A DNA stretch of 64,000 nucleotides, from positions 70,561-134,560 of IMG/VR virus record IMGVR_UViG_3300030616_000016. One strand, written 5' to 3'. Positions 10,550 to 11,407 of this stretch are shown piece by piece (the stretch's first letter is position 1; each line of letters begins with the position of its first letter). Source of the stretch: a virus. The notes under the pieces are model-generated. The model saw only the letters and a program-made list of their open reading frames with translations, made no database searches and had not been told where the DNA came from. The position numbers and the translations under genes were made by a program.

Positions 10550-10684
10550 ATTTGAAAGCCTTTCTGTGTTTTATGATTAGGGTAAAGAAAAGTCAAGTAC
10601 TATAGTAAGTGTTTACTATAATACTTGACTTTTTTGTGGCCACATAACTACACAAAAGTGTAGCTACATTTTTAGGGCACTTTA

Positions 10685-10936
10685 CTACTTGCCGCCATCA
10701 ACCTTCTGCTGCAGAACGACGATGTCGCCGTTATCCAGGACTGTGTCGAGGTCAGCAGCGTCGCCGTTTACACGGACTTTACGACTGCCCAGCTCAACTC
10801 CAGCTGTTGCAAGAAGGTTCGCGACGGTTGCGTTTGCCGGAGTGAGGCTGTAAGTCTTAACTTCGCCTTCACCCTGAGCCAGCTGTACACATGTAACCAT
10901 TGCAGAACTCCTTAAATAGGGTTCATGTTTTGTCAA
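10685..10936 (-). CDS. Ubiquitin-like beta-grasp protein (ThiS/MoaD-like), C-terminus ...VDGGK
   Basis: VRVNGDAADLDTVLDNGDIVVLQQKVDGG-K matches the ThiS/MoaD pattern V-x-VNG...L-x-DGD-x-V...GG. The gene is conspicuously GC-rich relative to its flanks. Confidence 0.6.
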   Translation of the reverse strand: MTKHEPYLRSSAMVTCVQLAQGEGEVKTYSLTPANATVANLLATAGVELGSRKVRVNGDAADLDTVLDNGDIVVLQQKVDGGK

Positions 10937-10939
10937 CGT

Positions 10940-11407
10940 TCAACTACAAGGCCACACTAGCCTGTAGTCCGCTGACCCTTTTAGAAACATTAATTCATCC
11001 ATAGATAAATTATGTTCATTTGCAACTATAAATCCTATGTTTCCGTAGTCATCGAATCTCATAAGAGATATAAAGTTTTCTATTCCGAACCTATTTTTTG
11101 ATTCGTTTCCACAATAAACGCAATTTGGAAATCCGTATAGCATTTTAGAACCACATAGACCACACTCTTCTTTAGACTCCAGTTTGTAAACTCTTAGTTC
11201 TTTTAGTATTCTTTCATTAATCATAAACGATTGTTGCCCAAGTTTTACCTCTGTACGTTCATGCAAATCTACAAGAGCATCAAATGGAATTCGATTGATC
11301 CAGTAATTTAATGGTCTTAAGCTAGCTGTTCTATTTCTATATATAAGTAAGTTAACTAGTATTTTGTCTGCACATATGGGAGAGCCTTCTTTAAAAATAT
11401 ATCCCAT
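10940..11407 (-). CDS. Hypothetical zinc-ribbon protein
   Basis: CGLCGSKM...CVYCGNE motif. Start moved to MGYIFKEG to avoid 180-nt overlap with the UvrD gene. Confidence 0.4.
   Translation of the reverse strand: MGYIFKEGSPICADKILVNLLIYRNRTASLRPLNYWINRIPFDALVDLHERTEVKLGQQSFMINERILKELRVYKLESKEECGLCGSKMLYGFPNCVYCGNESKNRFGIENFISLMRFDDYGNIGFIVANEHNLSMDELMFLKGSADYRLVWPCS

Follow-up and report, generated by a model that had tools for sequence, protein, structure and literature searches.

Why should one gene of 216 nt stand so far above the G+C content of everything around it? The question is raised by a 64,000 nt stretch of viral DNA (IMG/VR record IMGVR_UViG_3300030616_000016, positions 70,561 to 134,560), hereafter called the window, in which a predicted ubiquitin-like (Ubl) modifier gene lies beside genes for a putative ubiquitin-conjugating (E2-like) protein and a JAB/JAMM peptidase-like protein. 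The island is probably explained by selection on synonymous sites, together with the amino-acid composition of the encoded protein, in a separately expressed and probably high-output modifier gene. Its core is a single open reading frame (ORF):

10685 to 10900, minus strand: Ubl gene, a 216 nt ORF with its ATG at 10900, encoding 71 aa (MVTCVQ...QQKVDGGK*)

A G+C-rich island and the gene at its core

In a 150 nt sliding window the G+C content was 0.31-0.34 at 10400-10699, peaked at 0.573 at 10700-10849 and had fallen to 0.30-0.35 by 11000. All 216 nt windows of the 64 kb taken together had a mean G+C content of 36.1% (standard deviation 4.4%); the highest of them (56.0%) fell on ORF 10685-10900, which itself has 55.1%, and the next peak in the 64 kb reached 50.5%. 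The binomial tail for at least 119 G+C positions of 216 at p=0.361 was 1e-8, or approximately 3e-6 when corrected for about 296 independent windows. Compared with the other 99 ORFs of the window, the Ubl gene had z-scores of 5.1 for total G+C content and of 4.6, 0.8 and 3.8 for the first, second and third codon positions (GC1, GC2 and GC3), with values of 0.71/0.39/0.56 for the three positions against averages of 0.44/0.34/0.31.

A two-change-point fit placed the best borders at 10691 and 10978, with 53.5% G+C inside and 34.6% outside. The 3′ border of the island is the Ubl stop codon, and the 80 nt that follow have 32.5% G+C. The 5′ border is softer, with 46% G+C in the 80 nt upstream of the ATG and 29% in the next 80 nt; this shoulder takes in a leader and the end of the upstream ORF. 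An earlier note on this DNA had described an abruptly bordered island of approximately 300 bp with about 57% G+C, exactly over the Ubl gene and between flanks of roughly 30-35%. The island and its low flanks are real, and the Ubl ORF is indeed the richest of all windows of its size. The figure of 57% holds for the peak 150 nt window and not for the whole interval 10683-10990, which has 51.3% G+C, and the 5′ border is less abrupt than described there. The string quoted in that note was the reverse complement of the gene, which lies on the minus strand.

The possibility of assembly chimerism, which the earlier note had raised as a check, could be excluded. A separately assembled contig of 859 nt (L004, ERZ27252208) matches the window letter for letter at 10207-11065, a stretch that spans both borders, and counterparts of the island occur in assemblies made independently from other samples; with nothing but the sharp borders in its favour, we regard an assembly chimera or sequencing artefact as next to impossible. 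The idea that the island is an RNA gene was also rejected, as scans of the window for tRNA genes and against Rfam returned no tRNA gene and no match.

The Ubl protein (MVTCVQLAQGEGEVKTYSLTPANATVANLLATAGVELGSRKVRVNGDAADLDTVLDNGDIVVLQQKVDGGK; 71 aa) ends in GG-K. Its AlphaFold2 model (mean predicted local distance difference test score, pLDDT, 84.9) has a beta-grasp fold with the order strand-strand-helix-strand-strand-strand, and a Foldseek search with this model returned Caldiarchaeum ubiquitin, SUMO2, NEDD8 and ISG15 with a probability of 1.0 and template modelling (TM) scores of 0.66-0.74. A profile of 21 family members, compared with the PDB, matched SAMP2 (5lda_B, E=5e-10) and PF1061 (E=1e-9), and also MoaD and ThiS. 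The single Ubl protein scored 19.4 bits (E=1.6e-3) against the curated Pfam ThiS family (PF02597), which has a cut-off of 22.5 bits. Fold and profile support a relative of the ThiS/MoaD/SAMP superfamily that scores below the limit of the curated family, in agreement with the Ubl identity given in the earlier note.

On the plus strand, the antisense reading of 10685-10900 in the codon register (frame 0) is open throughout in 3/3 homologues, because TTA, CTA and TCA codons are absent from the Ubl gene. An antisense coding gene was considered and rejected: 17 differences that are synonymous between the Ubl genes of the window and of its relative L001 would be non-synonymous in that frame, which is not the behaviour of a conserved protein.

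Amino acids, codons and synonymous sites

When the Ubl protein was recoded with the codon usage of the window, the simulated genes had a G+C content of 44.6 +/- 1.9% and a GC3 of 0.28 +/- 0.05; the observed values of 55.4% and 0.55 were reached in 0 of 20,000 simulations. Because recoding yields 44.6% where 55.4% is observed, approximately 40-45% of the excess G+C is amino-acid composition, and the remainder is synonymous choice. Residues with GNN codons (Gly, Ala, Val, Asp and Glu) are abundant in the protein and raise the expected G+C content from 36% to about 44-45%. As for synonymous choice, Asn is encoded by AAC four times and never by AAT, Gln by CAG four times and never by CAA, Leu by CTG, CTC or CTT only and Arg by CGT only (not AGA); 6 of the 8 Gly codons are GGC, and NNC was chosen in 10 of 13 cases, compared with 31% in the background (p=1e-3). 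A generic preference for G+C does not describe these choices, since Ala is encoded by GCT or GCA without a single GCC and Val by GTT, GTC or GTA without a single GTG.

A second set of genes with similar codons was found outside the window, when the analysis was extended by 10 kb past its end:

L015:1-6800 (contig 87.2-94 kb), beginning about 3 kb past window position 64000: a G+C-richer block of approximately 7 kb with small ORFs

The block has a G+C content of 45-52%, and most of its ORFs have a GC3 of 0.51-0.58 (range 0.30-0.58). The Ubl codons fit the usage of the block better than that of the window (log-likelihood -74.9 vs -91.1), and recoding the protein with block usage gave 53.3 +/- 2.0% G+C and a GC3 of 0.515 +/- 0.058, reproducing the observed composition. 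Among the 100 ORFs of the window, the Ubl gene is the only clear member of this G+C-richer codon class. The block contains an HNH endonuclease gene, and its G+C-rich ORFs had no PHROG or Pfam match.

Relatives of the locus made it possible to follow the island through a clade. A search of proteins in 5.8e9 clusters returned one homologue only. Together with the window (L003), the clade comprises two further full loci, L001 and L005, and a 1 kb fragment, L013, that is, three full loci and one fragment. The order of genes (UvrD, a small ORF with CxxC motifs, Ubl, E2-like, JAB) is the same in all four. Their composition was as follows:

L001: Ubl G+C 52%, background 30%; Ubl GC3 about 0.47, background GC3 0.20
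Window (L003): Ubl G+C 55%, background 36%; Ubl GC3 about 0.56, background GC3 0.29
L005: Ubl G+C 63%, background 48%; Ubl GC3 about 0.69, background GC3 0.52
L013 fragment, with a partial Ubl gene: Ubl G+C 63%, background approximately 49%; Ubl GC3 0.77, background GC3 0.55

Ubl is thus a G+C outlier in 4 of 4 loci, 13-22 points above backgrounds of 30-50%, and its GC3 tracks that of each genome yet stays 0.18-0.29 above the background. Recoding gave the same result in the relatives, with a GC3 of 0.46 against an expected 0.20 in L001 (reached in 0 of 5000 simulations) and of 0.70 against 0.52 in L005 (5 of 5000).

The proteins of the neighbouring genes are 26-66% identical between L001 and the window. 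Where residues are conserved, these neighbours use the same codon in 48.5% of cases against 46.3% by chance (n=1580), that is, they are saturated at synonymous sites. The corresponding figure for Ubl is 64.6% against an expected 45.0% (n=48, permutation p=4.5e-4), an agreement at synonymous positions greater than the codon bias of the gene would account for. Nei-Gojobori proportions of synonymous differences (pS) were 0.50, 0.60 and 0.65 for Ubl in three comparisons, against 0.69-0.88 for the neighbours (0.69-0.80 for those of L001 and the window), and the non-synonymous divergence (dN) of Ubl was similar to that of ThiF and the DEAD helicase.

These relatives bear directly on the two explanations offered in the earlier note, namely recent horizontal acquisition of the modifier gene into a pre-existing E2-JAB context, with a high-G+C bacterial gene as a donor to be looked for, and strong codon-usage selection on this one gene. 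Recent acquisition into this genome has the contrast in composition alone to recommend it, and we consider it very improbable. The same gene, in the same place and with the same kind of offset, is found in L001, L005 and L013, that is, in every known relative; its divergence (proportion of non-synonymous differences, pN, 0.19-0.32) is comparable to that of the neighbouring genes; and no similar DNA was present in the collections searched. Megablast and blastn searches with the locus or the island found nothing in GenBank phages or PLSDB plasmids, the Ubl motifs of the clade retrieved no donor-like sequence from 185,579 species genomes, and a pattern of the Ubl DNA found nothing in IMG/VR, so that no bacterial, plasmid or phage sequence resembling such a donor came to light. 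The E2-like protein or its alignment likewise found nothing in IMG/VR and JGI contigs, tblastn with it found nothing in phages, and a protein search with it returned only the same three loci. There was no tRNA, significant flanking repeat or integrase near the island. The suggestion of codon-usage selection fared better, since GC3 is above the recoding expectation and synonymous divergence is reduced; it has to be qualified in that nearly half of the effect is amino-acid composition and that a cluster of small ORFs shares the codon class.

A transfer further back in time deserves more weight. An ancient acquisition resembling that of a phage moron, in which a Ubl cassette entered the ancestor of the clade from a G+C-richer source and has ameliorated incompletely, and the G+C-richer block perhaps likewise, is compatible with a compositionally distinct gene flanked by its own leader and terminator, with a block of matching codons that has raised intergenic G+C and an HNH endonuclease gene, and with a Ubl family that moves among phage genomes, as judged from smaller phages with related systems. 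A neutral foreign signature should, however, be gone by now, because the neighbours are saturated at synonymous sites and the G+C contents of the related genomes lie 18-20 points apart; the offset nevertheless persists in 4/4 loci. The relationships of Ubl parallel those of its E2-like neighbour, with L001 closer than L005 for both, and the codons are unlike those of a high-G+C donor (no GCC, no GTG, Arg as CGT). Searches of 5.8e9 clustered proteins, 1.8e9 representatives, the species genomes, plasmids and phages brought up no donor, and neither flanking direct repeats nor mobility genes were seen. Patchy presence, by which genomic islands and morons are recognised, is not what we observed, as L001, L005 and L013 all have Ubl in the same place. 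We consider this account unlikely overall: an ancient transfer is possible as the origin of the gene, but it cannot explain a maintained offset.

Expression signals, RNA structure and the favoured explanation

The flanks of the Ubl gene carry the following elements:

10898 to 10923, minus strand: leader AACC-CTATTT-AAGGAG-TTCTGCA-ATG, with the Shine-Dalgarno sequence AAGGAG at 10908-10913 and AACC at 10920-10923
10583 to 10636, minus strand: intrinsic-terminator-like element, a 21 bp A+T-rich stem with a 4 nt loop, followed by UUUUCUUU
10643 to 10668, minus strand: a smaller 10 bp hairpin between the Ubl stop codon and the terminator
10943 to 10968, minus strand: an imperfect hairpin (minimum free energy fold) that overlaps the final codons of the upstream ORF, within the 5′ shoulder

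AACC and AAGGAG upstream of Ubl are kept in L001, L005 and L013. The same leader motif (AACC-N2-10-AAGGAG-N4-10-ATG) precedes five ORFs of the G+C-richer block (L015:351, 1369, 1639, 1909 and 2197; contig 87.6-89.4 kb), an example being AACC-ATTTT-AAGGAG-N7-ATG, and on both strands of the 82.9 kb scanned for it the motif is confined to Ubl and these five. It was present on 6 of 36 AAGGAG sites against a base rate of 2.6% (p=3e-4), and the six ORFs that bear it have a GC3 of 0.44-0.56. The sole other gene with the leader motif in L005 has the highest GC3 among the neighbours there (0.65). The leader may serve the phage RNA polymerase as a promoter or transcription-start element, or it may enhance translation; it resembles the leader of phage T7 gene 10 (TTAACTTTAAGAAGGAG). 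An upstream promoter pattern, GAAC-N12-18-WWNAACC, was dropped as it missed the Ubl site itself, and Sigma-70-type promoter matches were no commoner than in shuffled sequences.

On the 3′ side, a terminator-like hairpin with a T-run lies between Ubl and the E2-like gene in 3/3 full loci, although the sequences are unrelated. In L005 a perfect 10 bp hairpin corresponds to the one at 10943-10968, and in L001 a weak one.

Such structures invite the alternative that a stable or specific structure of the Ubl mRNA constrains the synonymous sites, with G+C richness as a by-product. Codon conservation that is position-specific and goes beyond codon bias is what this function at the RNA level would predict, and the folding z-scores point the same way: -2.6 and -1.5 for the coding sequences of the window and L001, respectively, and -7.6 for the whole unit with its flanking hairpins. 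In addition, a 7 bp pairing between ACCUUCU (Leu-Leu) and AGAAGGU (Gln-Lys-Val), alignment columns 83-89 and 194-200, is invariant in 3/3 genes. However, the z-scores of the coding sequences are modest and the terminator hairpins give most of the -7.6, the covariation term of RNAalifold was unfavourable (+1.13) with many predicted pairs broken in one sequence, and no Rfam family matched. The invariant helix shows no covariation and is therefore uninformative, and three sequences have little power either way. On balance we hold an RNA-level function to be improbable, to much the same degree as an ancient acquisition or marginally more so.

Selection on synonymous sites acting on top of protein composition remains the explanation that we favour. 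The island would then be the coding sequence and short leader of the beta-grasp modifier in a phage-encoded set of Ubl, E2-like, JAB and ubiquitin-activating (E1) proteins. Its composition has two layers: the amino acids of the protein, with their many GNN codons, which lift the G+C content to approximately 44-45%, and a G/C-richer synonymous set (AAC, CAG, CTN rather than TTR, CGT and mostly GGC), which lifts it to 55%. The second layer would be maintained by selection at synonymous sites and would not be a remnant of foreign origin. With its conserved leader and its own terminator ahead of the enzyme genes, Ubl may form an expression unit of its own; as a modifier used stoichiometrically, it would be needed in larger amounts than E2, JAB and E1, or at another time, and its codons and translation start region may be tuned for such output. 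Selection on translation and selection on mRNA stability would both be allowed. Codon bias in bacterial genes is reportedly inversely related to the synonymous rate, a relationship credited to Sharp and Li in 1987.

Several observations weigh against this explanation. The Shine-Dalgarno duplex of Ubl, at -8.7 kcal/mol, ranks 13 of 100 and is strong without being outstanding. Intergenic DNA in the G+C-richer block is also raised in G+C, which points to a regional compositional cause for the block and not to pure codon selection, and the 83 kb examined contain no structural or other known highly expressed gene for comparison. The clade offers four loci only, one of them a fragment, and high or special expression would be the selected trait in a phage that is uncultivated. 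Finally, the Ubl genes of more distant systems in three smaller phages (L007, L009 and L011) show no GC3 excess, so high demand for the modifier is not universal in the family, and the G+C effect is specific to the phage clade of the window.

The three latter loci (L007:8001-11301, L009:8001-12789 and L011:8001-11074) lie on smaller phage-like contigs, with the order Ubl, a large protein (419-926 aa), a second protein and ThiF. This order is like that of Bil loci, and the genes adjoin primase/helicase, terminase or methylase genes.

For the scanning of genomes, the case shows that a G+C island with sharp borders over a single gene is not necessarily of foreign origin; here a few diverged relatives and a recoding simulation told apart the effects of amino-acid composition, of codon selection and of horizontal transfer. 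A modifier gene that is a separately tuned unit is what would be expected if the tag is used in bulk.

Neighbouring genes and comparison with known systems

The genes around Ubl that enter into the comparison are:

9512 to 10549, minus strand: E2-like protein, 345 aa, with an HPHVN..GGPCLGN motif kept in 3/3 homologues
8493 to 9485, minus strand: JAB/JAMM peptidase-like protein, 330 aa, with an HWHSH...SGQD motif and a C-terminal CxxC...CxxC
14572 to 15309, minus strand: ThiF-family E1-like adenylating enzyme, 245 aa (Pfam ThiF, E=1.4e-21, 77 bits)
10940 to 11407, minus strand: upstream ORF of 155 aa with two CxxC pairs, its last approximately 13 codons within the 5′ shoulder of the island

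The Ubl, E2-like and JAB genes follow one another directly, with the E1 gene 3.7 kb away, beyond a UvrD-like helicase gene. The E1-like protein matched PADLOC E1-E2 models with E-values down to 5.5e-18, and the JAB-like protein had a weak match to Pfam Prok-JAB (E=1.8e-3) and to the PADLOC JAB model (E=6e-4). No Pfam, PADLOC or PDB sequence match was found for the E2-like protein, its AlphaFold2 model was poor (pLDDT 52), and the best fold match was the RWD domain of Knl1 with a probability of 0.35; the E2 label is unproven and putative, being drawn only from the HPH...C motif and the gene order. L005 and L013 each have a homologue of the upstream CxxC ORF in the same place, and neither Pfam nor PADLOC gave a family match for it. 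Paired CxxC motifs of zinc-ribbon-like appearance occur in four proteins of the region, all on the minus strand (10940-11407, 13374-14087, 14108-14575 and the C-terminus of 8493-9485), around the Ubl, E1, E2 and JAB genes, and these are candidate adaptors or E3-like factors.

The di-glycine at residues 69-70 of Ubl is invariant in the clade and is followed by tails of 1-7 residues (K, KIS, NV and TAGALAA). This variability implies processing, that is, trimming of the residues after GG, presumably by the adjacent JAB protein by analogy with BilC, for which trimming of BilA has been shown (10.1101/2023.09.26.559546), and Ubl would then be conjugated once those residues had been removed. A profile search returned 107 family members, many with 2-4 tandem beta-grasp repeats ending in KGG, KGN or KGA. 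Within this family (P0003-P0108), single-domain proteins have 68-90 aa with the same endings and those with two, three or four tandem copies have 139-302 aa; the repeats are also found inside giant proteins of 6683 aa (18 matched repeats), 4282 aa and 2687 aa.

The window is part of a 231.6 kb contig (ENA ERZ27252234, k141_1275754) with genes of phage type, including an RNA polymerase beta-like gene, RecA-like, UvrD, DEAD helicase and DNA polymerase III alpha genes, and also TnpB-like transposases; the nearest proteins of GenBank phages are less than 30% identical. The ORF at 33888-35558 (minus strand) matches the beta subunit of phage multisubunit RNA polymerases (PHROG 3295, E=2e-14), which suggests a phage with its own transcription apparatus. 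Transposase-like ORFs are located at 21900-23117 (minus strand; PHROG 506, E=1.5e-133) and at 43010-44017 (minus strand; PHROG 4285, E=6e-32), the latter being a local G+C peak of 44%. A reverse transcriptase gene (RVT_1) overlaps the end of the RecA-like gene (878-2026 and 1983-3107, both minus strand), and this pair is also present in L001. With a reverse transcriptase gene nearby, the island was considered as the target of a diversity-generating retroelement; this was rejected as the window holds no second copy of the island, and no template/variable repeat pair was obvious in it.

A broader reading, to which we attach tentative and limited credence, is that an undescribed clade of giant phages runs its own Ubl conjugation pathway of the Bil/SAMP kind, with the modifier drawn from a dedicated expression class (leader, G+C-rich codons and synonymous constraint) that it has in common with the cluster of small ORFs. 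If true, the phage would run two regimes of translation or transcription for different sets of its genes, and host or virion proteins may be tagged in bulk with Ubl during infection. With the leader motif and the second codon class there is something concrete by which to delimit an expression class in a giant phage that is not in culture.

As a phenomenon the island is ordinary, though its setting is new: gene-specific codon classes in phages are already documented. Lucks et al. (2008, PMC2266997) describe expression-linked heterogeneity of codon usage within phage genomes, and another study (PMC5683454) concerns early versus late genes. As in those cases, Ubl and a small cluster of genes have a distinct codon set, a bias beyond what amino acids dictate and, for Ubl, reduced synonymous divergence. 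The present case differs in that the outlier is the gene of a 71 aa modifier and not a capsid or tail gene, and in that the class is also marked by a common leader motif.

The arrangement also recalls the morons of lambdoid phages, which Juhala and colleagues are said to have described in 2000 as genes of distinct composition, each with a promoter and a terminator of its own. The resemblance is that a single gene of deviant G+C content has start signals to itself and is followed at once by a terminator. Unlike morons, Ubl is functionally tied to its neighbours, its position is conserved in all relatives, and it is under synonymous constraint and not decaying toward the composition of the genome.

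As regards the protein, SAMP2 (5lda_B) and PF1061 are the best solved relatives at the sequence level, and Ubl shares with the small beta-grasp proteins archaeal SAMP2, ThiS and MoaD a di-glycine near the C-terminus and the company of a ThiF-family E1. It differs from them in falling under the Pfam ThiS cut-off and in the 1-7 residues that follow GG in the clade, and whereas sulfur-carrier systems are without an E2, an E2-like gene accompanies Ubl here. In gene content there is a parallel with the BilABCD systems (Type I and II) of ubiquitin-like conjugation in bacteria (Hor et al., 10.1101/2023.09.04.556158; Chambers et al., 10.1101/2023.09.26.559546), in which Ubl is followed by an E2 (only putative in the present locus) and a JAB-type peptidase and accompanied by a ThiF-type E1, the modifier has a conserved glycine with a few non-conserved residues that need trimming, and tandem beta-grasp family members occur. 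In contrast to BilABCD, the locus described here is on a 231 kb phage-like contig and not in a bacterial defence island, its E1 gene is 3.7 kb off across a UvrD-like helicase gene, and its E2-like protein has no detectable match in sequence to the known models.

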